From assembly GCF_053078305.1 (NCBI RefSeq), contig NZ_CP166879.1: a stretch of 64,000 bases of DNA; one strand, given 5' to 3'. The notes beneath the pieces were generated by a model. That model ran no database searches and was not told where the DNA came from. It was given only the letters and a program-made list of their open reading frames with translations. How positions within the stretch are numbered: the stretch's first letter is position 1; each line of letters opens with the position of its first letter. The position numbers were made by a program, and so were the translations under genes. Positions 25,130 through 46,300 of this stretch are shown one piece after another.

Positions 25130-25492
25130 ATGCAGACCATTCGTTTTTTGCCCGATCGTCTGAACGTGGAGCCTGCGGTTTTTCGTGGTTTTACCACACC
25201 GGAACTGGGGCTGGCGGCCCTGACAGGCGCTGTGGCAGGGGGGATCTGGCCGTTACCGCTGATTCCGCTACTTGGCTGGGTGATTATCCCGACCGGGATG
25301 TTGCTGACTCCCCTGCTGCTGGTCTGGTTCGGTGGCGTCTGGATCAGCCGGCTGAAGCGGGGAAAACCTGACAACTGGCTCTGGCAGCATCTGGCGAAGA
25401 AAAGCAGTGCATGGGGTGGTGGCCGGAAAACATTTATCCGGGAGGCGCATGGCTGGTCCCTGCGCCGTACCCGTAGCAGGGGGAAAAAATGA
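25130..25492 (+). CDS. ICE membrane protein
   Basis: 120-aa ORF with two TM helices. Confidence 0.55.
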   Translation: MQTIRFLPDRLNVEPAVFRGFTTPELGLAALTGAVAGGIWPLPLIPLLGWVIIPTGMLLTPLLLVWFGGVWISRLKRGKPDNWLWQHLAKKSSAWGGGRKTFIREAHGWSLRRTRSRGKK

Positions 25493-26151: not shown

Positions 26152-27059
26152 TGAACGGAGCTGAACGTTGTTTATACCGTAGTATTGTGATGGTCCTGTC
26201 ACTGCTGGTTTTACCACTGAGCGCACGGGCTGATGAGCTGATGAAATGGGAGCGCATTCCCTTACCCGTTACCCTGATGGCAGGACAGGAGCGGGTTATT
26301 TTTGCAGATAAAAATGTGCGGGTGGGCTTCCCGCCAGCACTGAACGGAAAGTTGAGGGTACAGAGTACCGGTGGGGCAGTCTATCTGAAAGCAGAGAGTG
26401 TTTTTCCGCAGACGCGTCTGCAACTGCAGGATGTGGAGAGCGGAGAAATTATTCTGCTGGATGTGACAGCAGCAGAAAAAGGGCCCACAGAGCCCGTACG
26501 GATTGTGTATGAGGGAAGCGTCAGTACGGTCAGTCAGGCTGGCACAGCGGCGTCTGCACGCTCTGCAGAACACAAAAAGGTGGTACCCGGCGGGGATGAC
26601 GGCTCGCAGGCCCTCCGTCAGCCGGTGAAGTATGCAGAGCCTTTACCCGTTCTGTTGACCCGCTATGCGGCACAGTCGCTGTACGCACCGTTACGGACGC
26701 TGGAAGCGGTACCGGGTATCCGGCCGGTTAATACACATCTGCCCGGGAAAATCACCACACTCTATCCGTCAGAGCCACTGACAGTCACGCCACTGGCAGC
26801 CTGGGCTGCGGGTGGGCGTGCAGTTGTTGCACTGAAACTGACGAGTACGGTAAGCCGCAAAATTATCCTTGATCCGCGGGCACTTCAGGGAAAATTCATT
26901 GCCGCGACTTTCCAGCACCGCTGGCTGGGTGCAGCAGGTACCCCTGAGGATACCACCACGCTCTATGTGGTGACGGCAGAACGGCCGGAACAGGCGTTTA
27001 TCGCGGAGCCTGCCTCCCGTCGCATTCCTTCACGGGGGGAGGTGAAGCATGCAGATTAA
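26148..27059 (+). CDS. periplasmic ICE transfer protein (possibly VirB9-like)
   Basis: 303-aa ORF with signal peptide; position in the cluster. Confidence 0.5.
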   Translation: MMNGAERCLYRSIVMVLSLLVLPLSARADELMKWERIPLPVTLMAGQERVIFADKNVRVGFPPALNGKLRVQSTGGAVYLKAESVFPQTRLQLQDVESGEIILLDVTAAEKGPTEPVRIVYEGSVSTVSQAGTAASARSAEHKKVVPGGDDGSQALRQPVKYAEPLPVLLTRYAAQSLYAPLRTLEAVPGIRPVNTHLPGKITTLYPSEPLTVTPLAAWAAGGRAVVALKLTSTVSRKIILDPRALQGKFIAATFQHRWLGAAGTPEDTTTLYVVTAERPEQAFIAEPASRRIPSRGEVKHAD

Positions 27060-28536: not shown

Positions 28537-28550
28537 TGTAAGGAGATCCC

Positions 28551-28964
28551 GTGAAACGACAGTTATCTGTAATGACCGTCATGGTGGCGGTATTTATTCT
28601 GTCCGGCTGCTCGACATCGAAAGAGGAGCTTCTGCCTCCGGGTGAACAGAGTATGCTGGAGATCTGGCAGGGGAAAGGAAGCGGAGGACATTCGCGGCAC
28701 ATGACAGCGGCCAGGGACACCCTGCGGCGTCCGCTGACAATGCCGGAGCAGCAGGCAGATGCGCACGGAGCCATAAGCTACAGCCGGACACAGGAAAGTG
28801 AGATCAGTCAGCAGTTTCCGCGGCTGCCCAATCCTGACATGGTGATGTATGTTTTTCCGCATCTGGCTTCCGGTACGTCACCGGTTCCGGGGTACAGCAC
28901 AGTATTTCCTTTTTACAGCCGGACGCAGTATGCCATGCCGGGTGAACGAACGGAGGCGTTGTGA
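28551..28964 (+). CDS. conjugative lipoprotein
   Basis: Signal peptide with lipobox LSGC. Confidence 0.55.
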   Translation: MKRQLSVMTVMVAVFILSGCSTSKEELLPPGEQSMLEIWQGKGSGGHSRHMTAARDTLRRPLTMPEQQADAHGAISYSRTQESEISQQFPRLPNPDMVMYVFPHLASGTSPVPGYSTVFPFYSRTQYAMPGERTEAL

Positions 28965-31798
28965 TGCGATTTTCCCTGTTTACAGACACAAAAAAACGGG
29001 TTTCTTCCCCGGTGTCGCAGCATGACGGAGAAGCGGTATCTCCGGATATGAAAGAAAGAGTGGACCCTCAGGTACGAAAGCCACTGTCAAGGCCGGGGAA
29101 GATGACCCGACAGGATGAGACGAAGGTTTACCATGCCTGTCCGTCGGTGATTGATTTTCTGCCATGGGTGGAATATCTGGACGAAGAGCAGTGCCTGCTG
29201 CTGGATGATGGGGTGTCGGTTGGTGCCGTGTATGAGGTGAGTCCGGCTGCTACGGAAGGGCGGACCGCAGAGCGTCTGGAGCAAATCCGGGATACGGTGG
29301 AGGATGCGCTGCAGGACAGTTTTGATGAATATGACTCACATCCCTGGGTGGTGCAGTTCTTCTGTCAGGATGAAAACGACGTGGACACGTATGTTGACCA
29401 GCTCAGGGGGTACGTGAAACCTCATGCAGAAGGCTCCTCATTTACGGAGGCCTGGCTGAGGGAGATGGAGCGCCATCTGAAGGGGATTGCCCGACCGGAA
29501 GGTCTGTTCAGGGATACGCTGGTCACAGGTCAGCCATGGCGTGGTCAGCAGCGGCGCACGAGGATGGTGATTTACCGGTGGATCGGGAAAAACAACCACG
29601 ATCCGATGCCGCCGGTGGCAATGCTGAACCAGGTCTGTTCGCGGGTCGTGGGGGCGCTGGGTGGCGCAGGCGTCCGCTGTACACGGATGAACGGGCAGCA
29701 GGTGCATGGCTGGCTGCTGAGGCTGTTCAATCCCCGGCCGGAATGGGTGGACAGGGATATTCTGTACCGTATGGCATCCCGTGCAGAACCGCAGGAGACA
29801 CCGGAGGGAATGATGCCGGTGATGACCGATTTTGCAGAAAGCCTCTGGTTCACCCCACCGGTATCTGATCCGGAAAACGGCGTGTGGTGGCTGGACGGGC
29901 TTCCGCATGCCGCTGTTGTGGTGGAGAAACTGCGCACACCACCGGAGCCGGGAACCATCACAGGGGAACAGGCCCGGGGCGAAAAGACAGTGAATGCCCT
30001 GATGGACACCTTTCCGGAGGGAACGGTGCTGTGTATGACAATTGTGGTCCAGCCACAGGACACACTGGAAGAGCGCTTCACGAGGTTGTCGAAAAATGCG
30101 GTCGGGGAGAACAGTGAATCCCTGCGTGCCCGGGAGGATGTGGCGACCGTGAAGAAATATCTGGGAAACCGGCACAAGCTCTACCGTGCCGGGATCACGT
30201 TTCTGCTGCGGGCAGAGGATATGGAGAGTCTGAAGCGCAGACGGGTTGAACTGACGACGGTGCTGCTGGGCGCGGGCTTACAGCCAGTGCGCCCGGAGTT
30301 TGATGTCGGACCGCTGAACAGCTGGCTGCGCGCGCTGCCCATGTGTTTTGATCCTGATACGGATAAAAAACAGTGGTACACGCGTCTGATGTGGGTACAG
30401 CATCTGGCAGGGCTCCTGCCGGTGACGGGAAGGGAAACCGGTACGGGGCATCCCGGATTCAGTTTCTTTAACCGTGGCGGGGATGTGCTGACCTTTGATC
30501 CGCTGAACAAGCTGGACCGGACCCAGAATGCACATCTGCTGCTTTTCGGGCCTACCGGAGCCGGTAAATCGGCCACGCTGTGTGGTTCGTTGTCGCAGAT
30601 AATGGCAGTTCATCGTCCCCGTCTGTTTATCGCTGAGGCCGGGAACTCGTTTGGTCTGCTGGCGGATTATTTTGAGAGTCTCGGGCTTTCGGTTAACAAA
30701 ATCAGTGTCAAACCGGGAACGGGGGTGTGTCTTCCTCCATTTGCGGATGCTCATCAACTGGTGGAGCAGGGAGAGACGCTGCAGAGTGTGGATGAGCATT
30801 CACTGCCCGATCTTGATGAAGATGAGGGGGATGAAGAGGCAGAGAAACGCGACATTCTGGGGGAGATGGAAATCTCTGCCCGCATGATGATCACCGGAGG
30901 GGATCCGAAAGAAGAAGCAGCGCTCAAACGTGCGGACAGGGCGATGATCCGTGAGGCACTGCTGATGGCCACGCACACCACGTACCGGGAGGGGCGTCAG
31001 ATGCTGCCGGTGGATCTGCAGAGTGCGTTGTGGGAAATTTCGCGGGACACTCAGCGTAATGATGTTCGCCGGGCTAAAGCCGCAGAGATGGCAGAGTCGC
31101 TGGGGATGTTCACCCAGCCGGGCAGTTTTGAAGCGGAGCTGTTTAACCGGGAAGGAAAACTGTGGCCGGAAGCGGATGTGACCCTGATTGATCTGGGGCA
31201 TCTTGCCCGTGAAGGTTATGAAGCCCAGATGGCACTGACCATGGTGTCAATGACCAATATGATTAACAACATTGCCGAGCGCGATCAGTATCTGGGACGG
31301 GATATTCTGTTTGTGGTGGATGAGGCGCATATCGTGACGGTAAACCCGCTTTTGTCCCCGTATATGACCAAAGTGGTGAAAATGTGGCGCAAGCTGGGGG
31401 CCTGGCTGTGGCTGGCCACGCAGAACCTGAAGGATTATCCGGATGTTTCAGAGAAGATGCTGAATATGGCAGAGTGGTGGGTGTGCCTGACCATGCCGCC
31501 GGAGGAAGTGAACAATATTGCCCGTTTTAAATCCCTGACGGAGGAGCAGAAGGCGGTACTGCTGTCAGCCAGTAAACTGTCCGGCTGCTATACGGAGGGG
31601 GTGGTACTGGCGAAGCGCACAGAAGCGTTGTTCCGGGTTGTGCCACCGAGTCTGTATCTGGCTCTGGGGATGACGGAGAAAGAAGAGAAGGCTGAACGCC
31701 GCGCCCTGATGAAGGTGCACCAGTGCAGCGAACTGGAAGCAGCGTTTCATGTGGCACGAAAGCTGGACGGGCTACGTGGTCTGGCTGGCAGGGAGTGA
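28961..31798 (+). CDS. traC: conjugative transfer ATPase (VirB4/TraC-like, ICE class)
   Basis: 945-aa ORF; Walker A LLLFGPTGAGKSAT and Walker B-like region FVVDEAH. Confidence 0.85.
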   Translation: MMRFSLFTDTKKRVSSPVSQHDGEAVSPDMKERVDPQVRKPLSRPGKMTRQDETKVYHACPSVIDFLPWVEYLDEEQCLLLDDGVSVGAVYEVSPAATEGRTAERLEQIRDTVEDALQDSFDEYDSHPWVVQFFCQDENDVDTYVDQLRGYVKPHAEGSSFTEAWLREMERHLKGIARPEGLFRDTLVTGQPWRGQQRRTRMVIYRWIGKNNHDPMPPVAMLNQVCSRVVGALGGAGVRCTRMNGQQVHGWLLRLFNPRPEWVDRDILYRMASRAEPQETPEGMMPVMTDFAESLWFTPPVSDPENGVWWLDGLPHAAVVVEKLRTPPEPGTITGEQARGEKTVNALMDTFPEGTVLCMTIVVQPQDTLEERFTRLSKNAVGENSESLRAREDVATVKKYLGNRHKLYRAGITFLLRAEDMESLKRRRVELTTVLLGAGLQPVRPEFDVGPLNSWLRALPMCFDPDTDKKQWYTRLMWVQHLAGLLPVTGRETGTGHPGFSFFNRGGDVLTFDPLNKLDRTQNAHLLLFGPTGAGKSATLCGSLSQIMAVHRPRLFIAEAGNSFGLLADYFESLGLSVNKISVKPGTGVCLPPFADAHQLVEQGETLQSVDEHSLPDLDEDEGDEEAEKRDILGEMEISARMMITGGDPKEEAALKRADRAMIREALLMATHTTYREGRQMLPVDLQSALWEISRDTQRNDVRRAKAAEMAESLGMFTQPGSFEAELFNREGKLWPEADVTLIDLGHLAREGYEAQMALTMVSMTNMINNIAERDQYLGRDILFVVDEAHIVTVNPLLSPYMTKVVKMWRKLGAWLWLATQNLKDYPDVSEKMLNMAEWWVCLTMPPEEVNNIARFKSLTEEQKAVLLSASKLSGCYTEGVVLAKRTEALFRVVPPSLYLALGMTEKEEKAERRALMKVHQCSELEAAFHVARKLDGLRGLAGRE

Positions 31799-31802
31799 GA
31801 CT

Positions 31803-32180
31803 ATGCTGTGTCTGAAGTATCCGGAACCGGAAGTGGTGTCTGCTGTTCACCCCGCCGGAAGTGTGTTTGTTCTGCCGCCACAGGGTGCGCCGGGGATAAG
31901 TTGCACCACACGGGATAATCTTGAACGTCTTCGCGGGCATCTGGCGGCGCAACTGGGGCGGGTGGAGTGTATCCGTTGCCAGCCACAGAGGGTGGGTCTG
32001 AACAGCAGTGTGGCGGTGATGCTGGAAGGTCAGCGGGGTCAGTATGTGCATATTCTGCTTACTGTGAGTGGGCATGAGAGCTGGCCGTCGGAGGAGGAGT
32101 ATATTCATCCCCGCTGGTATATATCAGTGACTGATGCGGCGGATTTGTTCTATCTGCTGTTGTGGCTGGGAGAGGGGTGA
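31803..32180 (+). CDS. hypothetical ICE protein
   Basis: ORF track 31749..32180; ATG 31803 follows GGGAG RBS just after the ATPase stop. Confidence 0.45.
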   Translation: MLCLKYPEPEVVSAVHPAGSVFVLPPQGAPGISCTTRDNLERLRGHLAAQLGRVECIRCQPQRVGLNSSVAVMLEGQRGQYVHILLTVSGHESWPSEEEYIHPRWYISVTDAADLFYLLLWLGEG

Positions 32181-32181
32181 T

Positions 32182-32397
32182 ATGAGGAGCGATATCGATT
32201 TTCCGGGACCACTGTATCCATCGCTGTCAGATCAAATTGCCAGTGAACCTGTGCTGTTTCTGGCGGGAGCTGTGGGTGTGGCTGTGTTTTCATGGGTGCT
32301 TGCGAATTTTTCATGGATGCTTACGAATGTACTGGCCCGGATGCTGTCAGGGTTGTACTCCCGTGTCAGGAGGAGGGTAAAGAACTCTGAAAAATAG
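32182..32397 (+). CDS. small membrane protein
   Basis: ORF track 32134..32397; ATG 32182 after GGGAGAGGGG RBS. Confidence 0.4.
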   Translation: MRSDIDFPGPLYPSLSDQIASEPVLFLAGAVGVAVFSWVLANFSWMLTNVLARMLSGLYSRVRRRVKNSEK

Positions 32398-32566
32398 CGG
32401 GAGAGAGGTGCTGCCCTGATGCCTTCGTTGTATTCTGCGACGCTGTTGGTGCCCGTATTTTGTGCGGGTACCGTACAGAATCACCGCATGAGCCATTGCT
32501 GAGACGCTCACTTTTTTTCGCATGCATTACCGGAGTGATGGCTCAGCCGGTGATTTTGGTGTTGAG

Positions 32567-32767
32567 ATGAGAGCCAGTATGGGAAAGCGATATAAAATAA
32601 CTGCGACAATAATCAAACCAGGCAATATGCCGGTTCAGTGGCTGCGTTACCAGGATGAAAAAATGACTCAGGATGAATGTGAAAAACTGTTTGCGCCCGC
32701 AAAAGAGCCGGGACGGTATATTGGCGTCAGGGTGGAGGACTTCCGGTGTGAAGTGGTGAAGGCCTGA
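32567..32767 (+). CDS. small hypothetical protein
   Basis: ORF track 32522..32767; start uncertain. Confidence 0.3.
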   Translation: MRASMGKRYKITATIIKPGNMPVQWLRYQDEKMTQDECEKLFAPAKEPGRYIGVRVEDFRCEVVKA

Positions 32768-33087
32768 GTATGAAAATAAAAACCTCCGGCGGAGTCGGAG
32801 GGGGCAAAAACAGATAGTCCCGGAGTGTATCTGTGTAAATGGTGTTATTGGTATAATAATGGTGGTAAAGACCACGGGAGAATTTATTCATTTTATTCGT
32901 CATGAAATCAACGGTAATAGTGTGTTTCTGTGACGGGAATAAAAAAATACAGCACCGCCGATGACCCGGTGCTGAAAACAGGTTAAATGTAGTGGGCACA
33001 TTTCCGGTAATATCAGGAACAGCATGTTATGGTTATAAAAGCATATACCGGGAGTGTGCCCTGGCACTGTGATGTTCTGGTTGTCTT

Positions 33088-33116
33088 TTGACCATTTTCC
33101 GGGGACGAAATATAAG
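33088..33116 (+). promoter_or_regulatory. candidate sigma70 promoter (TTGACC, 17-bp spacer, TATAAG)
   Basis: Near-consensus -35 and -10 hexamers with 17-bp spacing, about 35 bp upstream of the lipoprotein start. Confidence 0.4.
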
Positions 33117-33151
33117 CTGTTCTGCGTTAACACTTAATAATGAGAGATTGT

Positions 33152-33601
33152 ATGCTGAAAAAAACAATTCTGGCGTTATGTATTTCCGCACCATTTCTGG
33201 TTGCGGGCTGTGATGATGCGACAAAGGAGAATGTAAGTAAGAAGGCGGCAGATATAAAGGAAGCTGCGCAGACTCAACTCAGTGATGTGAAGGATGCCGC
33301 GGAGGAAGTGAAAATGCAGGCTGTCGGAAAGGTGGCAGAGGTTTCTGAAGCGGCTCAGTCCGGGCTCAGCGAGGTGAAGGATGCCGTGGAGGAAGTGAAA
33401 ACACAGGCAGCCGGAAAGGTGGCAGAGGTCTCTGAAGCGGCTCAGTCCGGGCTCAGCGAGGTGAAGGATGCCGTGGAGGAAGTAAAAACACAGGCAGCCA
33501 GAAAGGTGGCAGAGGTCTCTGAAGCGACTCAGTCCGGTCTCAGTGATGTGAAGGATACCGCTCCTGAAAAGGGGGCTGAAATATCCGTAACGGAGGAGTA
33601 A
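33152..33601 (+). CDS. lipoprotein with tandem internal repeats
   Basis: ORF track 33140..33601; ATG 33152 after GAGAG RBS; lipobox LVAGC. Three tandem copies of an about 20-aa (60-bp) unit AEVSEAAQSGLSEVKDAVEEVKTQAAGKV. Confidence 0.6.
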   Translation: MLKKTILALCISAPFLVAGCDDATKENVSKKAADIKEAAQTQLSDVKDAAEEVKMQAVGKVAEVSEAAQSGLSEVKDAVEEVKTQAAGKVAEVSEAAQSGLSEVKDAVEEVKTQAARKVAEVSEATQSGLSDVKDTAPEKGAEISVTEE

Positions 33602-33705
33602 AAGAGCGCCGTCGGTGCAGTTTTTTTCAGCACCCGGTGACACGGAATTTTATATACGGGGCATGTCTGTCTCTTTAATAAATCAGCATATTTACCGGAT
33701 ATCCG

Positions 33706-34425
33706 ATGCCCTGTACCTGCGCTGTCATTATGGCTCTCAAACAGACAATGCTTTGTCTGGAGCACAGGAACTCTGTCATACCTGCCGGCACAATGCTTCT
33801 GATTGCCGGGCATCTGCGCCCTGCTTTTCAGGCTCATACCGGACGTTTCCTTATCGCTGACCTCAGTGAGGAGGTGGTGAGGCGGTATCTGCGGTTCTGC
33901 ACGCCATTATCCGGTATGGCAGTCAGCCCGTCGTCTTTGCTTTTACAGATCCGGCCACAGATGTCCGTGCTGGCGGAATGTCTGATCAGACAACTTATTA
34001 CAGATGAACCATCGCCGGTGTACTTCAGGGATGCGGTGGCTTTTTCCAGTCTGGCGCTGTTTGAGGAACATCCGGATTTCCATGCCCTGCTCACGGGGTG
34101 TATCCGGAGCTGCACTGTCCGGGTGAAGAATATTATCAGTGCTGATTTGTCCCGTCCATGGATGCTGGGTGAAGTGGCCAGTCTGTTATATATAAGTGAG
34201 AGTTTACTGAAGAAAAAGCTTCAGGAAGAGCTGACGACCTTCAGTGAGCTTCTTCTGAAAGAGAGAATGCAGTATGCCGTTCAGCTTTTGTCTGCGGGAG
34301 AAAACCGTATTTCCCGGGTGGCAGAGTTGTGTGGCTATGCCAGTGCTTCTTATTTTATTTCTGTGTTCAGGCGTTATTATAGTATTACCCCGAATCAGTG
34401 GCTTCCTGTGATGCAACCGGATTAA
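33706..34425 (+). CDS. AraC-family transcriptional regulator
   Basis: C-terminal AraC-type HTH signature (...SRVAELCGYASASYFISVFRRYYSITPNQW); start position uncertain. Confidence 0.7.
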   Translation: MPCTCAVIMALKQTMLCLEHRNSVIPAGTMLLIAGHLRPAFQAHTGRFLIADLSEEVVRRYLRFCTPLSGMAVSPSSLLLQIRPQMSVLAECLIRQLITDEPSPVYFRDAVAFSSLALFEEHPDFHALLTGCIRSCTVRVKNIISADLSRPWMLGEVASLLYISESLLKKKLQEELTTFSELLLKERMQYAVQLLSAGENRISRVAELCGYASASYFISVFRRYYSITPNQWLPVMQPD

Positions 34426-34560
34426 TTTGATTCAGATGCAGAGTGTGCGTTATTCAGAGGAAGAGGCTTAATTTTTATCATCCGGTTTTGAATTTATTGC
34501 TGATTGTCCCTTTGCCTTTGCGCACGCTGTCAGATACCAGTTGTCTGACGGAGTCGCATC

Positions 34561-34956
34561 ATGTACCGACTGTTACTGTATTCCTTCCTGATACTACCGG
34601 TGGCAGCATCTGCCGGTACAACAATTTATACCGATTCGCACCAGCGCCCCATGAACCCGCCAGCAGGTGTTCGTGTTGTCCTGCTTGATGCTCCTGAGCA
34701 GACGCAGGATACATTTTTCGGGGTACTTCCCGCAGAGCCTGCAGAAGCATCTGCCCGTGTCATGGAACGGATGCAGTCGCCTGAATGGCAGTCGTTTCAG
34801 GCAGGGCTTGCTGAACACTACCGTGCATTAGCACATGCCTGGTCCCTTGGACTGAAAAAATATCCGGCTGTGGTTTTTGATGACAGTGAAGTGGTCTACG
34901 GAACCACAGACGTGGTGCTGGCAGAACAACTGCGTACAGGGGGAGGGCAGCCATGA
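34561..34956 (+). CDS. periplasmic ICE transfer-region protein
   Basis: 131-aa ORF with signal peptide, followed by overlapping genes. Confidence 0.55.
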   Translation: MYRLLLYSFLILPVAASAGTTIYTDSHQRPMNPPAGVRVVLLDAPEQTQDTFFGVLPAEPAEASARVMERMQSPEWQSFQAGLAEHYRALAHAWSLGLKKYPAVVFDDSEVVYGTTDVVLAEQLRTGGGQP

Positions 34957-35927
34957 TTTCCTGCACATCACGTCATCGCGCCGGTGTTCTGCTGTTAAGT
35001 ATGGCGGTATTGCCGGTGGCAGAGGCATCGCTGAACACCGCGCAGATAGTGGCCAGTGCAGCCTCACAGAGCTGTATCAGCTGGCGGGTCAGCGGGATTT
35101 GCTACTGGCTGTTCTGCACCAAATTCAGTTGCAAGGTCAGAACATCAGTGAAAGTTTCCCATTATATCCCGGAAGTGGTTGTTTCCACCTATACCGCACC
35201 TGGCGGAAATCCCTGGCGTGAAATGTCGGCGGTCAGCAGTACAGCCGGTGGTCCGGAGAATGCCATAAGCAAAGGTATTGCCGGTCTGTCAGCAGGAGGA
35301 GGGAACCCCGCAGACATGAAGGTACAGGGGGAACGTCGTTCGTCAATCCGTTTTAAATATGCCGATGCAACAGGGCACCCGGCCACCACGCTTATCGGAG
35401 GGATGGTGCCGGGATATTCCTGTGAGTCACCGGTGACACCTTTTGTTCCTTATTTTCTCAGTACGCTTGACAGTATTGCCTGGCGTACAGGACTGCCGGA
35501 GTCACTGTACCCGGAGGCCCTGATCCCCGGTAAACGCGAAATAGGCAGCCAGGAAGAAGAGAATATGTGGGGCAATGTGTATCCCCGCTCCGGGTTCGTG
35601 ACCCAGACAGATGATGATAAAGCTGCTGCGGTGGTGGCCCAGCGGGTGGCTGACATTATCACCCGCACCGGTGAGCCACATGTCTATCAGCCGGTGAAAG
35701 CAGGGAAGAAGGACGGTTACTGGCCACCGGATCCGGTGGAGGAAAATACGGGCACCCGGAACCATAAATGGCAGAGACTGACGCCTTCAGTCTCCACGTC
35801 CTGCGCAGTCTTCCCTGACGGAGAGCATGAAGCGGCTGAAACAGGTAATGCTGCCTTTGCCCTGTGGCAGCCCTACAGTTGCTGCAAGAAACGGGGACAG
35901 ACATTCCTGGGCAGTACGAATTTTTAA
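34953..35927 (+). CDS. periplasmic ICE transfer-region protein
   Basis: 324-aa ORF with signal peptide; 4-bp overlap upstream. Confidence 0.55.
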   Translation: MISCTSRHRAGVLLLSMAVLPVAEASLNTAQIVASAASQSCISWRVSGICYWLFCTKFSCKVRTSVKVSHYIPEVVVSTYTAPGGNPWREMSAVSSTAGGPENAISKGIAGLSAGGGNPADMKVQGERRSSIRFKYADATGHPATTLIGGMVPGYSCESPVTPFVPYFLSTLDSIAWRTGLPESLYPEALIPGKREIGSQEEENMWGNVYPRSGFVTQTDDDKAAAVVAQRVADIITRTGEPHVYQPVKAGKKDGYWPPDPVEENTGTRNHKWQRLTPSVSTSCAVFPDGEHEAAETGNAAFALWQPYSCCKKRGQTFLGSTNF

Positions 35928-35937
35928 GTAAGGGGAA

Positions 35938-37362
35938 GTGATGAAACAGAAAATGACGATACCTGTTCTGGCTGTGGTGCTTTGTGCGGGTACGGTACAG
36001 GCTGACGGAAACTTTTTGTCCCTGCCGAAAGTGAATGACAGTGCGTTTGGCTACGGTAAATCCGTGGACGGCGCAGTATCAGACAAACTGTTTTATACCC
36101 TGGGAGGGGGCTCGGTGATATCGCAGCCGGCAACGCGCAGCAATATGCAGAAACTTGGGGTGGATCTCGGGTGGAGCAGTGATCTGATGTGTGGCAATTT
36201 TGACCTGAAAACAACAGTGGGTAACCAGCTGAACGGGATCACTGATGGTTTCAAAAACCTGATGGGGGATGTGATTCAGGGGGCGAGCGGAGCCGTGGCG
36301 AGTCTGCCGGCAATGGTGATACAGCGGGCTAATCCGGGGCTGTATGACATGCTGACCAACGGTGTACTGCAGGCGAATGTGGCATTCGACAAAGCGCAGC
36401 TCAATTGTCAGAACATGGCGAAACGCATGATGGAGTTCACGGACAGCAATAAGTGGACGCAGGCGGCCATGCTCGAGGAGTACAAAAAAATTGTGAATAC
36501 GGGGGACGGTGATGCGATCAAAGGGGATGAAGCAGGTCGTCAGGTTACCGGGGAGGAGGGGCAACGCTGGATCGGAGGGCAGCAGCGTGGTGGAGCGGGA
36601 CAGTCTGCTATCCGGCCGACACATGATCTGACAGCTGCCGGTTTCAATATGATGAACAGTCTGCCTTCGACCAGTACATCCAGTGTCAGTCCCGGGAACT
36701 GTAACGGGAGTGCCTGCATGAAATACCGTAATGCAGAGGAAGCTGCCCGGGCGGTGGTGAAGGTTCTGGGGGATAAATCCATGCGGACCTGTGGTGATGC
36801 AAAGGCATGTACCAGCGGGGATGCTGATCAGCAGCCGGGGACCAGTATTGCCGGCACGGGGTTTGCGCCGATGCTTGAAGAAGCGACGCGGGTTAACACG
36901 GAACTGCTGGCAGGTATGGTCAATGGTCGTGACAAGCCGACAGCCGGGAATCTGGCAAAACTGAAAGCCGGGAGTCTGTCTGTGACAGCGGGAGTGATCC
37001 GTGCCCTGCAGCGTGATCCGGACAATGGTGCCCTGACGTCGCGTCTGGCGGGAGAACTGGCCATGGCGGATACCGTTGAAACGGCGCTGCTGATGCGCAG
37101 GATGCTGCTCACGGGGATGGCCGAGCCGTATGCTGCAGCTCAGCCTGCTGCACTGGAAGAGGGGGAACGCCGTATTGAGGCGCTGGATCGGGAAATTATG
37201 GCGCTGAAAAACGAGATGGAGCTGAAGCGGGATCTGGCGCGTAACAGTGTTCTGACCATCATTGAACGGGATAACGAGCGTGTGGGGAATAACCCGATGA
37301 TCCAGCAGGCTGACAATGCTGACAGCCGTATCCATTCTCTCGATGCCCCGGATAAGGAGTGA
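35938..37362 (+). CDS. periplasmic ICE transfer-region protein
   Basis: 474-aa ORF with signal peptide and C-terminal coiled coil. Confidence 0.55.
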   Translation: MMKQKMTIPVLAVVLCAGTVQADGNFLSLPKVNDSAFGYGKSVDGAVSDKLFYTLGGGSVISQPATRSNMQKLGVDLGWSSDLMCGNFDLKTTVGNQLNGITDGFKNLMGDVIQGASGAVASLPAMVIQRANPGLYDMLTNGVLQANVAFDKAQLNCQNMAKRMMEFTDSNKWTQAAMLEEYKKIVNTGDGDAIKGDEAGRQVTGEEGQRWIGGQQRGGAGQSAIRPTHDLTAAGFNMMNSLPSTSTSSVSPGNCNGSACMKYRNAEEAARAVVKVLGDKSMRTCGDAKACTSGDADQQPGTSIAGTGFAPMLEEATRVNTELLAGMVNGRDKPTAGNLAKLKAGSLSVTAGVIRALQRDPDNGALTSRLAGELAMADTVETALLMRRMLLTGMAEPYAAAQPAALEEGERRIEALDREIMALKNEMELKRDLARNSVLTIIERDNERVGNNPMIQQADNADSRIHSLDAPDKE

Positions 37363-37366
37363 GAGG

Positions 37367-37708
37367 ATGAGCAGAATTTATGGCCGGGTGAAAAAGAGGA
37401 TGAAGGTATTCGCCCTGTATACGCTGTTGCTGACAGGGATTACCGTGTTTTCCCTCTGGCTGGCCGATACCGGTATACGTCACGCAGAAGGATTTGCGGC
37501 CCTGCGGGAGTGGATGTATGAGACACGTTATGGCTGGCTGGGATGGCGTCTGTGTCTTTACAGTGCGATCGGATGGCTGGGGTGGAGGATCTGGCATGCG
37601 CCGGGGTTCAGGGCAGAATACCGGGCTTCTTTTCTGCGTATGGCCACAGTCAGTGTTCTGTTTATCCTGCTGTGTGAATACGCCATTTTTGCTGAGCCGG
37701 GGCGTTGA
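37367..37708 (+). CDS. ICE membrane protein
   Basis: ORF track 37316..37708; ATG 37367 after AAGGAGTGAGAGG RBS; three TM helices. Confidence 0.45.
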   Translation: MSRIYGRVKKRMKVFALYTLLLTGITVFSLWLADTGIRHAEGFAALREWMYETRYGWLGWRLCLYSAIGWLGWRIWHAPGFRAEYRASFLRMATVSVLFILLCEYAIFAEPGR

Positions 37709-37714
37709 GCAATC

Positions 37715-39233
37715 ATGACCACAAATAACTATCTGGAATATTTTCTGACTCTGCTGGGCTGGGTGGTGAATAACGGTCTGTGGAATGTGTTGATCAGCAC
37801 AGGACTGTTTGCCCTGCCACTGGCATTCAGGATCATCGGGATCTGGCTGAAAGTCAGGGAAGAAGGTGCGGATGAGGGAAACAAAGGGATGCTTTCCCTG
37901 CCGCGTATTGAGCATGTTCTCTATGGTGCTTTTTTTGTGATGATATCCTGCTGTGTTCCTCTGGTACAGGTGACGCTGGATACGCTGTCATTCGATAAAT
38001 CCAGGGCACAGACCTGTGGGGTATGGACACCTGAAGAGCCCGGAGAGACGGGGTACAGTGGGGTGATCAGCAGTATAGGGGATCAGACTGCTGCAGCCCC
38101 GGTATGGTGGGTGGTGGTTCATAAATTGTCGAAAGGTGTCACCCAGGCGGCAGTGGCTTCGATTCCGTGCCGGCCTGATTTGCGCCAGTTGCGTTTTGAG
38201 ATCCAGCGAACGTTTATAGAAAACAGGGCACTTGCTGATGAGCTGCAGGACTTTATGAACGACTGTTATTCACTGGCACTGTATGTGGAAACAGCGTGAT
38301 CAGGGGCAGAGTAAAGATAAAAAAGTGCTTGATGATATCTCCTGGATAGGGAGCGCCACATTCATGCAGGGGGATTACGGGACGCTGCAGTCAAAGATGC
38401 CGCGGGCTGCGTTCCCGTGGAATACAGCACGTGACAGCGGACGACCGGATACGGGGCGGGGAGGCTATCCGACATGCCGGGAGTGGTGGAGTGACAGTAG
38501 TGTGGGGCTGAAAAAACGGGTCATGGAGGAGGTCAGTGACCATTACTGGTTACGTCTGTCAGCTGCAATGAAGATGATTGGCAGTAGTCAGGTGGATTAT
38601 AAGGAGGAGGTGATCAAGCGTCTGGTGAGTCCGGCAAACCTGACGCTCTCTCAGGGGGGAGAGGTGTATCGTGGCTATGGTGGCAATGCAGATATGACGA
38701 CTATGAATGCGGTGGCCCGGATTGCGGGAACGGCGGGCAGTGCGGTAGCAGCACTGGGTGCGTTTCCGGCACTGGATGCAATGCGGCAGGCACTGCCGAT
38801 GGTACAGTCGATAATACTGATGGCGATTTACATCATGATACCGCTGATTCTGGCGTTTGCGGCATATGAACTGTCGACGTTAATCACACTGACGTTTGTG
38901 GTGTTTGCGGTACACTTTCTGACGTTCTGGTGGGAGCTTGCACGGTGGCTTGACAGCTGGATGCTGACGGCGCTGTACAGTTCGGATACACATACCCGGT
39001 TCAATATGATGGGATTCCAGAACACATCGGATGATCTGATAATGAATCTGGTGATGGGGACAATGTTTCTCGTCTTGCCGGCAGTGTGGCTGGGTGCGTT
39101 GTCCTGGGCTGGGGTGAATATGGGCTCTGTGGTTGGTGATACTTTTGGAAAAAGTACAAGTCATACCTTTCAAGCTGCATCAAAAAGTGGTGATCTTGCA
39201 TCTAGTGGAATTTCAAAAGGTATGAATAAATAA
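37715..39233 (+). pseudogene. traG: TraG-like conjugal transfer protein (TraG_N-type), apparently split by a frameshift near 38283-38299
   Basis: Two overlapping ORFs in different frames (37715..38299 and 38283..39233) together give about 510 aa with multiple TM helices typical of TraG_N. Could be a genuine frameshift or a sequencing error. Confidence 0.6.
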
Positions 39234-39235
39234 GA

Positions 39236-39267
39236 AAAAGTCCAGTATAATTTATACTGGACTTTTT
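39236..39267. terminator. bidirectional rho-independent terminator after traG
   Basis: Perfect inverted repeat AAAAAGTCCAGTATA-ATT-TATACTGGACTTTTT, with A/T tracts on both sides. Confidence 0.65.
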
Positions 39268-39671
39268 GAATAAGTATCATCATATGAAAGGCGTTTTTAT
39301 TTGTGTTGGTGAAATAAATGGAGATTCAATTTCTGATACAAATGGTGATTTATAAGATAGGTCTAAGGGCATGTCGTTATTATTTTTAATAACTGAAGCA
39401 GATTGTTTATTAGCCAAAAATGCACAAGTGACCTTTTTTACAAGGGAGTTGAAGGTCCATGGATTATCCATCGGCTTACAACGCCACATTGCTTTTTCAG
39501 ATTCGTTATTCATATCTATACCCTCGGCGCAGGATAAATAACACAGTGTTATCATACGTCTTGTATGATAAATGTGCAATCACATGTCTTCCATTTGATG
39601 AGAGGCTGTGACGCCACATTACCTTGGGACACGGGGATTCTGTTGAAATGATCCATCTGAGAATGTATCTT

Positions 39672-39692
39672 GTTGTTATGTTATAACATGGG
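39672..39692. promoter_or_regulatory. Zur-box-like palindrome upstream of ykgM
   Basis: Palindrome ATGTTATAACAT inside TGTTGTTATGTTATAACATGG, about 15 bp upstream of the ykgM start. ykgM-ykgO is the classic Zur-repressed operon. Confidence 0.4.
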
Positions 39693-39701: not shown

Positions 39702-39965
39702 ATGAAACCAAATATCCATCCTGAATACCGCACAGTAGTGTTCCATGACACGAGTGTGGATGAGTACTTTAAAATAGGTTCTACCATCAAAACAGAGCGC
39801 GAGATTGAACTGGACGGTGTGACGTATCCGTATGTGACGATTGACGTTTCCTCCAAATCGCATCCGTTCTATACCGGTAAACTTAGAACGGTGGCATCAG
39901 AAGGCAATGTTGCCCGCTTTACTCAGCGTTTTGGTCGTTTCGTTGGGACTCAGAAGGGGGAATGA
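39702..39965 (+). CDS. ykgM: 50S ribosomal protein L31 type B (zinc-independent paralog)
   Basis: 87-aa protein [31 protein letters not shown]... lacking the Cys zinc ribbon; followed by an L36 paralog. Confidence 0.9.
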
Positions 39966-40105
39966 TGAAAGTGCTTAATTCTCTGCGAACGGCCAAAGAG
40001 CGACCTCCTGACTGTCAGATAGTGAAGCGCAAAGGGCGATTGTATGTAATTTGTAAATCCAATCCTCGTTTTAAGGCTGTTCAGGGACGCAAAAAAAAGC
40101 GTTGA
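39965..40105 (+). CDS. ykgO: 50S ribosomal protein L36 paralog
   Basis: 46-aa [49 protein letters not shown], start overlapping ykgM stop. Below the ORF-track size cutoff. Confidence 0.85.
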
Positions 40106-40588: not shown

Positions 40589-41683
40589 TTAGTTTTTAGT
40601 TTCCAACGGTGGTAATTTTTCAAGTGTCAGTAGTTCCTGCCCCTTTACCCGACGGCATTGGGAAGCTGCATCCTGAAGTTTTTCGCGAACGTTATTATCA
40701 TAGTCGGGATCCAATAGTTGGTATTGAAGACTATCTTTGTATGATTGAATGATATTTAGTGGACAGATAAGGCGTATATCACCGAGTGAATAAAGTTTTA
40801 CTGCCTTAAGTAAATAGTATTTTTCATCTGAAGAGCGAGCACTCTGCCAGGCTGAGTTTCTGAAATATTCAGCAGGATATGAGGTGGTCGGTATTCCATA
40901 AACATGAGGAGTCAAGTCCATGATTCCTGATATTTTAAGGAAAATAGTTAGTATTAGAGCTGGAACCATATGCACAAACGTAAAAATGAAGGCTAATATT
41001 CCAGCCATGATTCCGCCAGTCACAATTACCTGATTTAGCAAGCTGGTGCGGGTTCTTAACCTGAGGAAAACAATACAGGGAATAAGTGAAAAAATAATCA
41101 GAAGAATTGATAATACTATAACACTCAACACCTGCCAGAACTCGTTTATTCCTTCCGGGAATTCCAACGTATGAAGAAATAACTCAAGAGGAATAATATA
41201 TATGCAGGCTGCGTGGGTGAATAGCGTTGACTGTACAATATGCATGGAAAGAAACTTTTTGATCTGCTTCCACTTACCCTCTGTGCTTATCTGTCTATAA
41301 GTAATAGAGCCATTGAGACACAGAGAAAGTATAAAACTGCAAATCCAGATAATGCTTAACTGAAGTAGCACATATTGTTCAATTTCTTTTCCTGCGTTGT
41401 ACATGAGGAAAAAATAACCAAAAAATATCAGTGTTGATAATAGCGAGGTCAGAAGAACGATTTTGATGTTGTTTTCCGTCAGTTCATTCCGGAAATCACT
41501 TTCCCCTGGATAATTGGAAATATAGAATCCTGCCACTAGTGAGGGCATAAATAACGCCATGCAAAATAGGAGTACGCTGATACAAGCAAAGACCATCAGA
41601 TAACTGAACAATGATGAAAAAGAAATACTGTCAAAAAAAAGTCCTGTTTGTCCAATACGCGCAAGATGTGACCATATAAACAA
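40589..41683 (-). CDS. polytopic membrane protein of unknown function (low GC)
   Basis: 364-aa ORF with about 8 predicted TM helices and a C-terminal soluble tail; AT-rich codon usage unlike surrounding DNA. Confidence 0.5.
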   Translation of the reverse strand: MFIWSHLARIGQTGLFFDSISFSSLFSYLMVFACISVLLFCMALFMPSLVAGFYISNYPGESDFRNELTENNIKIVLLTSLLSTLIFFGYFFLMYNAGKEIEQYVLLQLSIIWICSFILSLCLNGSITYRQISTEGKWKQIKKFLSMHIVQSTLFTHAACIYIIPLELFLHTLEFPEGINEFWQVLSVIVLSILLIIFSLIPCIVFLRLRTRTSLLNQVIVTGGIMAGILAFIFTFVHMVPALILTIFLKISGIMDLTPHVYGIPTTSYPAEYFRNSAWQSARSSDEKYYLLKAVKLYSLGDIRLICPLNIIQSYKDSLQYQLLDPDYDNNVREKLQDAASQCRRVKGQELLTLEKLPPLETKN

Positions 41684-42026
41684 TGCTACAATAGAAGTTG
41701 ACGCGATCGGTGTAAGGATTGTTAAAAACCAAGCACATAGTTTTATAAAATGTTTGTTTACTCTGTAATTTTCTATATTTTAGTGTCCATTCAAAGTTTG
41801 ACATATGATCTAGCTAATGACTCCATTTTTGGGCATTGCTTACCAACATACCTCTTATGTGTATTACTGTGAAGGAGAACGATGAATAGCGACTATTCAC
41901 GTGGATCTCCACAACAACCATCAATATTCCAGCCATTATCATTCCCGGTATCCTTACCGGCATTACCTGTAGAATCGGTTATTGTTGTTGCCCTATAACA
42001 CACTTTTGTGGCTATAACGTTTATAG

Positions 42027-42521
42027 CTATCGACAAAAAACCATATTAATTCTTTTGGAAAAAAGAAAATAAGGTATCCATATAACAACACCAAATATTC
42101 CACTCACTAATAATCTGATATTATCTGAATCCAGCTGTACGTCAAAAAGAATAGCCGGTAATAAAGTAAGATAGAGAGCAATAATCAGTCCTGTTGCATA
42201 ATAAGCGATCATGGCTTTTCGAGTTCCTTTTTTGCGTCTGAAAAACAACCACGTTGCATAAAGGGAAACAATGAATCCACATATCAGCAACACAAATGCC
42301 CCCATAGCGTAATAAGATAAAAAGCCAGTTTCATTGAAATAATTGAATGCAGTTATGGTAAAACTGTAAAGTTCAATAGTACTACCAATAACACCCAAGA
42401 TAAGTCCCAGAGCAGGAAGATATAATAGTCCATTAATTTTACTTAACTCTTCTCTTTCACAGGCATCACACAATCCCGACTCTTTGTTTGCTTCTGACAT
42501 TTTACATTTTATACATTCCAT
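42027..42521 (-). CDS. zinc-ribbon plus four-TM membrane protein of unknown function (low GC)
   Basis: N-terminal CxxC...CxxC (MECIKCK...CDACE) followed by four hydrophobic helices. Confidence 0.5.
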   Translation of the reverse strand: MECIKCKMSEANKESGLCDACEREELSKINGLLYLPALGLILGVIGSTIELYSFTITAFNYFNETGFLSYYAMGAFVLLICGFIVSLYATWLFFRRKKGTRKAMIAYYATGLIIALYLTLLPAILFDVQLDSDNIRLLVSGIFGVVIWIPYFLFSKRINMVFCR

Positions 42522-42862: not shown

Positions 42863-43103
42863 TTTTTCTTATCCTCTGACGAACCTTTCGGTTTATTGAG
42901 TTATTGGCTCCTTCAGGTAACTCACCTTTGGCAAGTTTATCCAGTCCTGCCTGCTTCTGTTCCGAGGTGAGATTATTGGCATCAGCATACTGATTCCATG
43001 AGGAAACCGCCTGACCATAACTCACCATTCCTGATGGAAGACTGAGCGAGTTATTCTCAACAACAATCCTAACCGCAAAGGTTGGGATTGTTGTTAATCT
43101 CAC
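42846..43103 (-). CDS. orphan CdiA C-terminal fragment (VENN-containing, truncated)
   Basis: 85-aa ORF containing VENNSLS and a segment (SWNQYADANNLTSEQKQAGLDKLAKG) paralogous to the start of the main CdiA-CT; lacks the Gly-rich toxin core. Confidence 0.5.
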   Translation of the reverse strand: MRLTTIPTFAVRIVVENNSLSLPSGMVSYGQAVSSWNQYADANNLTSEQKQAGLDKLAKGELPEGANNSINRKVRQRIRKNETTI

Positions 43104-43348
43104 TCAGGATCTGATGGAGGTTTTTTACGAGAATTAAACTTATCGATCAGATTAAAAACTATCGCTGCTAGTGTTATCGATGTACCTGCTATGCACCCAA
43201 ACACAATAACTCTTATCATTTGGTGGGTCGGGAAAAAAAAGAATCCTTTTGTTAGGTAAATAAATAAAGCTCCTCCCCCCATCAAAAGAAATCCACTGAT
43301 GATACAAAAGAGGCATGCATATATGAACAATACAATGTAAGCAATCAT
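43100..43348 (-). CDS. cdiI: CdiI immunity protein (small two-TM membrane protein)
   Basis: 82-aa ORF whose start overlaps the cdiA stop (ATGA); two hydrophobic helices. Confidence 0.65.
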   Translation of the reverse strand: MIAYIVLFIYACLFCIISGFLLMGGGALFIYLTKGFFFFPTHQMIRVIVFGCIAGTSITLAAIVFNLIDKFNSRKKPPSDPE

Positions 43349-46300
43349 TTCCCCTCCTCCTTCTTCGCGCTAGAAGAGAACTGATTATTACTACTTGCTT
43401 CTTTTATATATCCACCAAGAAATTCACTACCAAAAGATCCTGTCGCATCAAATATAAATCCCGGAAACTCTTTCCCAGTAACTGAGTTTACTATTCCGGG
43501 AGCATATACTCCAAATGCTCCACCCAATCCGGCCCCGGCAGCAGCCCCTCCAATAGAGCCTGTATTTGGACCATCGGTAAAGAATGCACCACCCATCGCA
43601 ATTCCGACGTTTTGTCCGACAGTTCTCCCCGGCGCAAGCATACCCGCAATGCCTGAACTGGCACTGCTTTTCCAGTCCCAGTTTTTGTTTTCATTACCTG
43701 GCTGGCTTAAATCAAACCACTGGTAACTTCCATTGGCTATCTCCGCGACGACTCCACCACTGACCATTTTACCGACCGAAGCAGCAGGCCCCAGATACCA
43801 TGCCCCGGCAATCATTACACCATCCTGATATCCATCCACGATCACTTTCGTGATATTGGTGCTGTCCGGCATATCACCTTTCGCTATCTTATCCAGTCCA
43901 GCCTGTGTTTGTTCCGGTGTCAGATTATTGTCCACCGCGTACTTGTTCCATGATGTAGCCGCAGCAGCATTGCTTTCAAAACCATCACCGAAGCTGAGCG
44001 CATTATTCTCAACCGTCGTCTTACCTGACTGTGCTCCGGCTACCGCTGAAGCTCCCGAATCTCCCACCAGACCACCGGCCAGGCCGGCAGCAACCGTTGC
44101 CAGTGTCGAGACCGTCTGCTTCTCTGTCCCGCTCAGTTCACTCACCGGCTTACCGTACATCTGTGTGGCTATCATTCCCACCACCTCGCCGGTGGCTGCG
44201 CCTGCGGCACCAGCCAGAGCATTCTTACCCTGTGCCAGAGACAGGGCTGCATTCACTACTGCATGAGCTGCCACACGTCCCGCACCGTCCGGGGTGGTCT
44301 GTTTGATAATTTCAGCAATATACGGTGCTGCACCACCTGCCAGGGCTGCACTCAGATTACCGCCGGCCAGCCCCTGTACTGCTGCCGTTGCGGCCTGTAT
44401 CGCCTGCTGGTATTTGCCTCCCGTTCCAAAACCTGAGGCCGCCATACCGTTATTGTAGGCCCGCTGCGCCACATCCTGTTCCGTGAACGGTTTTCCTGCT
44501 GCCTCAAGCTCCTCACGGGCCTGATTCAGTGCTGCCGGGTCCCGCTTCGCTTTCTCACCAGCTATCTGGCCTTCCGTTCTGGCAATATCTGCCACCTGGT
44601 TACCAATCTCACCAATGAGCTGCGCCTGCTGCAGTCGCTGCTGCTCTTTTTCCCTGTCAAAGATGGGGGACAGCGTCTGGTTTGCATGTGCTGCGTCACG
44701 GTTCAGGTCTGCCACATCCTGTTTCTGGCTCTGCGTATCCCGGATGGTGATATTCCCGGCAGACACAGCCGACTGAGTGGTGCTTTCTGCATGGCCTTCA
44801 TGATTTGCACCAACCAGCAGATTGTTGGCCATATTTCCCGCGAACTGGCCACCGATGCTGCCGCCAGTGCTGATACCCACGCTCTGGTGTTCAACTTTGT
44901 AATCAGCACGATTTTCGATATCACGGAAGCCCAGTGTACCGGTATCCAGCCGGTTTTTATCTGCCGTTGCCGTGGACGCAATCACCGCACCGTTCAGTTG
45001 CGTATGCTGTCCGGTGGTGACATCAAACCCGCCCCTGCCGGCAAAAATCCCCGTCTGCTCCTGCACACTGTCATAGTTACTGTGCATTTTATCCCGGCTG
45101 AGGCTCACACTCGCCGAACCGCTCATGGACCCGAAAGTGAAGCTGCCTCCGGCACTGGCATTCTGCTGCTTACTGTCATAACGGTCACTGTCCTGCTCAC
45201 TGGTCAGTGTCAGATGACGACCGGCATCCACTTTCACCGTTTCACCGCCGGCCTGCACGCCGGTAAGCGTGGTGTCCCGCCCGCTGATAATGGTCAGGCG
45301 GTTTCCCGCATCCACCGTGGTTTCTGTATGGGTGGTACCGTTGCCTTTTTCACTGCCCTTACCCTGGTTTGCGCTGGCTGAAACACTGATACCCCAGCCT
45401 CCGGCCCCCACACCGATACCGACACCCACACTGCCGCCACTGGATGAGTTCTTTCCTTCCAGCTTTGACGTGTTTTCTGCTGATACCAGATTCACGTCAC
45501 GGTTTGCCTGCAGCAGAACGTTGTTCCCTGCCTTTATCTGACTGCCCTGTATCGTCAGGTCACCATCCACGTCCTTCACGCCGGAGCCGGTGGCCTGAAT
45601 ACTGAGGTTATTACCTGCGGTCAGGGCGCTGTTCTTCGCCACCGTCTGCTCTGACTGCTGTTCTGATTTCGAAGACTGGCTGCCGTAAGAGAGGCTGATA
45701 CCCACGGCATTGTTATTCTCTTTCTGGTTGCCCTGTGCTTCTGCCAGTCGTCCGGCCTGCACGGCCTGAGCCCCCGAGAGCGCGGCCTTCACCCCCTGCA
45801 GGGCTTCAAGCCGGCTGTTTCCGGCAGATTTCGCCGCCTGCACGGTCTCCACCGTCGTGTTCAGGGCGCTGCCCACTGTGCCGGACAGGGCAAGCGTCAG
45901 ACCGGAGGTTTTCTGCTCCACCGAATGCGTCTGCACATGCCGGTCTGTGACGGCGCTAATGCTGACCTCCTTACCACTGAGTGCCATGTCCCTGCCGGCA
46001 ATCAGGTCAGCACTGTTGGCGCTCAGCCGGTTACCTGCCTGAAGGGAAACATCACCGTGAACACTCCCCACCGTGCTGCCTTTCTGTGTGCTGTCTGTTG
46101 CGGTGTCCGTGACTTTCAGACTCTGGCTGCCCACACTGAATCCCACACCTCCGGAGCTCATCAGCCCGGATTTTTTCTCCTGTTTCAGGTGTGTTTCACG
46201 GTTGCTTTCTGTCAGCGTGCCGATACTCAGGTCATTTCCGGCAGCCAGGGAGACACGGTTATCCCCGGCCACACTGCTGCCCGTGACGTTCAGATTATGT

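Follow-up and report, generated by a model that had tools for sequence, protein, structure and literature searches.

We analyzed a stretch of 64,000 nucleotides of Escherichia coli DNA (contig NZ_CP166879.1 of RefSeq assembly GCF_053078305.1; hereafter the window), which carries the transfer genes that belong to an integrative conjugative element (ICE), the last of which, traG, is split into two reading frames. The whole 64-kb window very probably lies inside an element of approximately 94 kb at a tRNA-Phe gene (the left end of this span was placed from relatives) that has a frameshifted traG but is structurally untruncated, and that is probably not self-transmissible. The element appears to be an ICEEc2-like, MPF_G-type member of the ICEclc/PFGI-1/SPI-7/pKLC102 family of ICEs, integrated at the tRNA-Phe gene. 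A 2-bp deletion in TATATG would interrupt the TraG_N protein in a large loop between membrane segments; lacking a functional TraG_N protein, the secretion channel would probably not be assembled and the element would not transfer itself, and with an intact integrase excision would probably still be possible. Beyond its cargo the element would continue with UvrD, the MobH-type relaxase TraI, a tyrosine integrase, and tRNA-Phe. The relaxase and the element's own integrase are missing from the window because the window ends before them. An earlier note, made from the sequence of the window, had the ICE ending abruptly at traG; instead, cargo follows and genes of the ICE backbone reach position 64000.

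The Split traG Gene

The overlapping frames reported in the earlier note were confirmed, and alignment to intact alleles has located the deletion responsible for them. The 5′ fragment (37715..38299, + strand) encodes 194 amino acids, namely native residues 1–190 followed by VETA and a stop, and the 3′ fragment (38283..39233, + strand) encodes 316 amino acids, native residues 191–506, starting exactly at the native Met191. The two open reading frames (ORFs) lie in different frames and overlap by 17 nucleotides. The deletion site (38282..38285, + strand) is a short alternating pyrimidine–purine run in which intact alleles read TATATG and the window reads TATG. A megablast search with window positions 37300–40100 against complete E. 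coli genomes matched 74 records, four of which are 99.8–99.9% identical across approximately 2.8 kb, including the junction with the downstream L31/L36 genes, and in these four genomes the locus is one gene of 1521 nucleotides. Its 506-amino-acid product (WP_033811029.1) is named [quoted passage not shown] in RefSeq. In a three-way alignment with intact alleles (loci L001 and L002), the window gene differed by just one synonymous single-nucleotide polymorphism (37961) and the 2-bp "TA" deletion in the context CTGTA[TA]TGTGG, which turns CTGTATATGTGG into CTGTATGTGG; the 3′ fragment is otherwise identical to the native protein from Met191 on.

The repaired 506-amino-acid protein matched TraG_N (PF07916) in Pfam, with residues 8–481 covering model positions 1–457 of 462 (E = 1.1e-77). 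TraG_N was its sole Pfam match, no coupling-protein ATPase domain being detected, and no NCBIfam family was assigned to either fragment. A hydropathy scan placed the hydrophobic segments of the intact E. coli TraG_N protein at approximately residues 25–43, 68–86, 366–405, and 442–468, and the break at residues 190/191 falls in the long loop that separates the N-terminal and C-terminal membrane blocks. A single uninterrupted TraG_N reading frame is thus absent here, and on sequence grounds the two ORFs are the pieces of one broken, VirB6-like TraG_N gene of 506 codons that is the last of the transfer operon. Two other identities were considered and rejected. The gene is not a VirD4/TraG-type coupling protein, as it has only the TraG_N domain and the coupling protein is encoded by traD (20230..22326); nor is it a case of programmed +1 frameshifting, as neither a slippery nor a prfB-like context surrounds the overlap ACA GCG TGA, and the ATG at 38283 is not preceded by a Shine–Dalgarno sequence.

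Loss of TraG_N function is suggested because the C-terminal fragment, if made, would be without the membrane segments that lie upstream and set the orientation of the loop. In ICEclc, the corresponding protein Orf53587 (505 amino acids, TraG_N domain, five transmembrane helices) has been proposed as a VirB6 analogue, and its deletion abolished transfer and disturbed IceB4 and IceB8 foci (PMC10018362). Because the ICEclc orthologue is essential for transfer, the element studied here is probably transfer-defective.

The Element Beyond the Window in Strain 48

The exact sequence of a 2981-amino-acid exoprotein encoded in the window occurs in one contig only, JPQG01000001.1 (contig 1) of assembly GCA_000736735.1, which belongs to E. 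coli strain 48, the subAB2-3 reference according to its genome announcement (PMC5323612). Contig 1 is base-identical to window positions 33345–52687, the traG deletion included, and no gene was called over traG in it, which is consistent with a pseudogene. A further contig of the same assembly, JPQG01000003.1 (contig 3), is base-identical (100%) to positions 52058–64000, the last 11.9 kb of the window. We walked rightwards from there with the strain's own proteins, along loci that overlap identically (L011, L061, and L069). Past the window end, strain 48 encodes DUF1281, an N6-methylase, a transposase remnant, a sialic-acid cluster, NanR, an esterase, and subB/subA; these are followed by two hypothetical genes, DUF465, a BON/DolP-like gene, and TacA with an intact GNAT partner, and then by a YadA-like gene of 506 amino acids, UvrD, TraI, Int, tRNA-Phe(GAA) (pheV), yqgA, and speC. 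In window-equivalent coordinates, UvrD (496 amino acids) lies at 84414–85904, the MobH-type relaxase TraI (493 amino acids, with PF07514 and PF07515) at 85897–87378, and the tyrosine integrase Int (345 amino acids) at 87446–88483; TraI is identical to that of strain 154 at 490 of 493 residues, and Int is identical to the strain 154 protein. When the TraI and Int alleles found in strains STEC1585 and 154 were looked up as exact protein sequences, strain 48 was not among the matches listed.

In strain 48, the relaxase and integrase genes are thus intact and contiguous with the right end of the window, 20–25 kb past it. Since they are contiguous with the transfer cluster, the proposal that the ICE had been truncated does not hold; of the "truncated, possibly immobile ICE remnant" once suggested for this DNA, only the immobility is retained, as plausible by way of the frameshift.

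The subAB2-3 subtilase cytotoxin operon was located at 13107–14589 of L061 (3365–4847 of L069), approximately 11–12 kb past the window end in strain 48, with the sialic-acid cluster on one side and the DUF465/DolP-like genes on the other. Lying within the ICE cargo, the toxin genes are thus carried at pheV by the backbone of a conjugative element.

The Same Element in Related Genomes

The expectation that in this family the relaxase and integrase normally lie beyond traG was borne out in strain 48 and in most relatives. In the complete genome of strain 154, where the ICE is at pheU, traG is followed on its 3′ side by L31/L36, hypothetical genes, an operon of the contact-dependent growth inhibition (CDI) type, an integrase-domain gene, ArdC, DUF1281, the N6-methylase, DUF465, the DolP-like gene, TacA/GNAT, the YadA-like gene, UvrD, TraI, Int, tRNA-Phe, and dicD, with ParA at the opposite end of the ICE. 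Strain STEC1585, with the ICE at pheV, carries the sialic-acid cluster, subAB, type I secretion, and kps capsule loci between the methylase and DUF465, and after this extra cargo come UvrD, TraI, Int, tRNA-Phe, and yqgA. The ICE runs on past traG in both of these strains and in OkiPb01714. The traG region is matched at 95% identity or more in 18 complete genomes, and in at least 12 of them the listed match to the UvrD–TraI–Int module lies on the strand of traG, approximately 20–70 kb downstream of it. Four of the 18 have multiple copies, which makes the listed match uninformative; for two of these four, 154 and OkiPb01714, a downstream position of the module is given or implied by the annotation. 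The remaining two of the 18 genomes look rearranged.

A truncation of the ICE approximately 0.9 kb past the window was entertained, since similarity to strain 154 ends after the terminator of the N6-methylase and a sialic-acid (nan-like) cluster comes next. It was rejected, as both STEC1585 and the walk in strain 48 show that this cluster is cargo, after which the ICE resumes. The subAB island of ST58, which has a DUF4102 integrase, was likewise set aside as a different island.

Some observations on the relatives may be recorded here. In STEC1585 (L002, 1–19300), a Mu-like prophage replaces the entire ICE to the left of TIGR03755; this strain is a genuinely truncated relative that has kept traG, cargo, TraI, and Int without the transfer apparatus. 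The cargo slot of relatives may hold other systems, including a CBASS-like group (SMODS, ThiF, JAB, and SAVED; L066–L070, 1284–5595) and KwaA/KwaB (Kiwa), which adjoin subAB (L056, L064, and L065, approximately 15100–16440).

Alternative Explanations

Several points weigh against a frameshifted but untruncated, transfer-defective ICE. The link from the window to TraI and Int is made through an assembly that matches the window in two overlapping pieces on two contigs, and contig 1 departs from the path of the window at 52688, first with a cdiB allele that is approximately 4% divergent and from 54966 with unrelated DNA (DUF4222, YagK, and Hha), so the CDI repeat may be the site of a rearrangement or a misassembly. 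The deletion recurs in just one further assembly, which is of this strain or one nearly identical to it and so provides no independent confirmation. Loss of transfer is argued from ICEclc only, and a second copy of the ICE, such as several relatives carry, could supply the protein in trans.

The deletion itself might be a sequencing or consensus error, with traG intact in the living strain. The intact 506-amino-acid protein is very common, the assembly collection listing it in 383 blocks, and the frameshifted 194-amino-acid product had zero occurrences among the gene-called assemblies of that collection; the single match to the C-terminal fragment was rejected as a second case because it is a gene of another strain that is truncated where its contig ends. 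As the intact protein is in 383 blocks and the 194-amino-acid product in none, the deletion is rare, lineage-private, and derived. A 2-bp change outside a homopolymer is unlike the usual error of long reads, and the rest of the window is clean, with no gaps in 15.3 kb and two in 11.5 kb relative to L001 and with about 60 other genes at full length; real decay is moreover under way in the element, in the form of a substitution-type nonsense mutation and an insertion sequence (IS). We therefore regard an error as unlikely. Far less probable is a functional break, in which a two-piece VirB6-like protein would be made by termination–reinitiation or recurrent 2-bp slippage at TGTATATGTG would switch transfer off and on. 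The support for it is circumstantial: every native TraG_N residue is still encoded, with Met191 exactly preserved, and one Logan contig starts at the site. That contig (L004, SRR20818783, 1094 bp) begins at its position 1 exactly at TATGTGG, the sequence flanking the TA indel site on the right; it comes from another strain and represents a different allele with several synonymous differences from the window. Its start resembles a break from a de Bruijn bubble at the indel and may be a coincidence.

As for the structure of the element, a truncated remnant ending after traG, with the relaxase and integrase lost or moved elsewhere, would account for a window without a relaxase and for the terminator and drop in GC content directly after traG, and truly truncated relatives such as STEC1585, with its Mu-like prophage, do exist. 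The backbone genes ArdC and DUF1281 are nevertheless still present at 62–64 kb, the ykgMO-like pair after traG is specific to the ICE, and both the matching assembly and most relatives go on to TraI, Int, and tRNA-Phe, so truncation is refuted for the matching assembly and hardly credible for the window. Alternatively, recombination with a second CDI locus may have physically split the ICE at the CDI operon, so that the transfer genes and the relaxase/integrase no longer form one excisable unit. The path of contig 1 beyond 52687 would fit such an event, as would the presence of the unit 42023–54966 in many E. coli, where it occupies another locus. We consider it very unlikely, since the window continues through 54966 into ICE backbone along a path that agrees with the complete genome of strain 154, and it is simpler to suppose that the repeat caused a misjoin in the draft assembly.

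Comparison With Known Elements

The family to which the element is assigned comprises ICEclc, ICEHin1056, SPI-7, PAPI-1, and pKLC102 (review, PMC5812530); its E. coli representative is ICEEc2 at tRNA-Phe. Among the features of ICEclc/PFGI-1/SPI-7 membership, the MPF_G proteins were found in the window and the MobH/TraI_2 relaxase and integrase by a tRNA in strain 48. The closest parallel for the traG region is ICEclc of Pseudomonas knackmussii/putida, in which orf57827, orf56883, orf55476, orf55120, and orf53587 follow one another (PMC10018362). The order here is the same (DUF1525, TraU, TIGR03755, a small ORF, and TraG_N in last place), and by domain and gene order the split gene matches Orf53587, which is likewise approximately 505 amino acids long with a full-length TraG_N domain and about five membrane segments. 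Unlike in ICEclc, the TraG_N gene is broken by a 2-bp deletion, and approximately 45 kb of cargo separates it from the relaxase gene, which is close by in ICEclc.

By its features, the element also resembles ICEEc2 of E. coli BEN374 and PAPI-1, pKLC102, PAGI-2, and PFGI-1, including insertion at tRNA-Phe in Enterobacteriaceae, the PFGI-1-class pilL2, PFL_47xx and TIGR037xx proteins, a TraI_2-type relaxase, and a tyrosine integrase beside the tRNA, although its cargo is not that of ICEEc2. SPI-7 of Salmonella Typhi, which is likewise associated with tRNA-Phe (PMC5812530), lends its name in NCBIfam to several backbone genes, namely the SPI-7-type DnaB found in relatives and two families with replication-protein names, STY4528 and STY4534, but the element has no Vi capsule or SopE phage cargo and its host is E. 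coli. TraG of the F plasmid and SXT, which acts in mating-pair stabilisation and entry exclusion, belongs to the same N-terminal domain family (PF07916); the 506-amino-acid protein here differs from it and from VirD4-type "TraG" in being of the N-domain type only, with coupling done by traD.

There is nothing new in the architecture of the element, which is an ordinary, lightly decayed member of its family. This large ICE carries virulence genes, belongs to a lineage of Shiga-toxin-producing E. coli, and is structurally complete; one 2-bp deletion has probably just deprived it of self-transfer. Among the cargo of the strain 48 element are the subAB2-3 subtilase toxin genes, a CDI system, and additional ribosomal proteins that are zinc-independent. 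The result is useful for judging whether the island can still spread and is otherwise mainly of value for annotation. It also calls for caution in delimiting such elements, since a window edge, a terminator, and AT-rich cargo can together mimic an element end; in the earlier note the pseudogene was correctly recognized, and the window edge and chromosome-like cargo led to the mistaken idea of a truncation.

Cargo Genes Within the Window

The AT-rich DNA after traG opens a variable cargo region of approximately 45 kb. Its ribosomal protein genes, a type-B L31 paralogue (39702..39965, + strand) and an L36 paralogue (39965..40105, + strand), had been taken for chromosomal ykgM/ykgO. They share about 83% DNA identity with the chromosomal pair (82.6–83.6% in the core-genome copies sampled), and matches fall into distinct identity bands, with 5071 records at 80–90% and just five at 99% or above. 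STEC1585 has both the ICE-type and the chromosomal copies, and the same genes follow on the 3′ side of every intact TraG_N allele, namely a 77-amino-acid gene, L31, L36, a 395-amino-acid gene, and a DUF2569 gene. Judging from this identity and neighborhood, the pair is ICE cargo and not chromosomal ykgM/ykgO. A palindrome, TGTTATGTTATAACA, located at 39674..39688 (+ strand), 14 nucleotides upstream of the L31 paralogue start, has one match in the window and zero in 100 shuffles, and is similar to a Zur box, the consensus of which it presumably fits. ICE-bearing strains thus own two copies of zinc-independent L31/L36, which may aid fitness under zinc limitation.

Further into the AT-rich cargo lie a 395-amino-acid hypothetical gene (40589..41776, − strand) and a DUF2569 gene (42027..42521, − strand). 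They are followed by cargo for CDI-type two-partner secretion (43100..54582, − strand), for which Pfam families were assigned on the identical genes of L006 (contig 1 of strain 48). It encodes a ShlB/CdiB transporter (52843..54582, − strand), an HlyC-like lysine acyltransferase (52306..52833, − strand), the 2981-amino-acid exoprotein with a PT-VENN domain (43345..52290, − strand), and an 82-amino-acid ORF (43100..43348, − strand), a gene layout resembling the acyltransferase-containing CDI class. An orphan fragment containing VENN occupies window positions 42846–43103. The block 42023–54966 with the CDI operon behaves as a portable unit, a version approximately 96% identical being carried at a different locus by many E. 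coli. No NCBIfam family was assigned to ten of the cargo proteins.

An integrase-domain protein of 300 amino acids is also encoded in the cargo region (57568..58470, + strand; PF12834/PF12835 on the identical gene of L011). It is not the ICE's own integrase. The earlier statement that the window has neither relaxase nor integrase is accordingly correct for the relaxase and needs amending for the integrase. Direct repeats of 237 bp, 99% identical, at 56598–56834 and 58865–59101 flank this gene together with a 107-amino-acid ORF, and the module is absent in some relatives (L016), which suggests gain or loss via the repeats. Toward the right end, the ICE backbone is represented by ArdC (62058..63035, + strand) and by DUF1281, which starts at 63149 (+ strand) and is still running at 64000.

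Transfer Operon, Partition Module, and Other Lesions

The MPF_G-type transfer genes occupy 15137..37708 (+ strand) and are all full length, as established from NCBIfam matches, the RefSeq annotation of relatives, and a length check. Their order is pilL2, TIGR03759, SLT, traD (the intact coupling-protein gene, 20230..22326, + strand), TIGR03747/58/45/50, PFL_4703, TIGR03749/52/51, the TraC-like ATPase (29102..31798, + strand), TIGR03757/DUF1525, TraU/TIGR03756, TIGR03755, a 113-amino-acid ORF, and TraG_N. In NCBIfam, the PFL_4706-type TraC ATPase TIGR03744 scored 1401 bits, and TIGR03755, TIGR03756, and TIGR03757 were above their cut-offs; the remaining MPF_G proteins (the TIGR03745–03759 set and the PFGI-1-class PilL2) are named in RefSeq relatives that are 99% identical and are full length in the window. 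Compared with annotated relatives, each gene from pilL2 (15137) through the ORF before traG has its full length, so the type IV secretion system gene set, previously described as complete from pilL to traG, is indeed complete up to the ORF before traG. Within this region, an Ag473-like lipoprotein gene (33140–33601) contains tandem repeats of approximately 87 nucleotides that encode three near-identical units of 29 amino acids, and the repeat copy number varies in relatives (142 vs. 149 amino acids).

The transfer operon ends at a bidirectional intrinsic terminator (39235..39267), which it has in common with the convergent 77-amino-acid gene (39280..39513, − strand). The hairpin has a perfect 15-bp stem with A5 on one side and T5 on the other (−18.5 kcal/mol, z = −5.9 relative to shuffles), and across 39–43 kb the GC content falls from 0.54–0.60 to 0.34–0.41. 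The terminator and AT-rich DNA described in the earlier note are thus substantiated by the hairpin energy and the GC profile, and the hairpin is a normal operon terminator.

The window begins within the partition/replication module of the ICE, with the 3′ part of parB (1..834, + strand), which aligns to ParB of CFIAFB20190157 from nucleotide 901 of 1734. The 3′ end of ParB, TopB, STY4534, and SSB are intact in the window; ParA and the island DnaB lie to the left of it and were observed in relatives only. The STY4528-family gene (3996..5240, + strand; NF040582 on two consecutive ORFs), the family of which is named "pathogenicity island replication protein" in NCBIfam, has a premature stop at 4569–4571, a further inactivating lesion of this ICE, with which the protein would end at 191 of 414 codons; the stop arose by substitution, as the alignment to the intact gene is gap-free. 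An IS66-family element (5583..8095, − strand; NF033517 transposase) is inserted with an 8-bp target duplication in a hypothetical ICE gene of 159 amino acids. The interrupted gene maps to 5352–5582 and 8096–8352, which share eight bases, and the IS66 element is missing at the corresponding site of CFIAFB20190157.

For an overview of decay, the lengths of about 60 ICE genes annotated in close relatives were checked in the window. Three clear lesions were found, the TraG_N frameshift, the STY4528-family nonsense codon, and the IS66 insertion, all other transfer genes being full length; the remaining length differences are in-frame or due to repeat variation. Decay at an early stage is suggested by the STY4528-family nonsense mutation and by the insertion of IS66.

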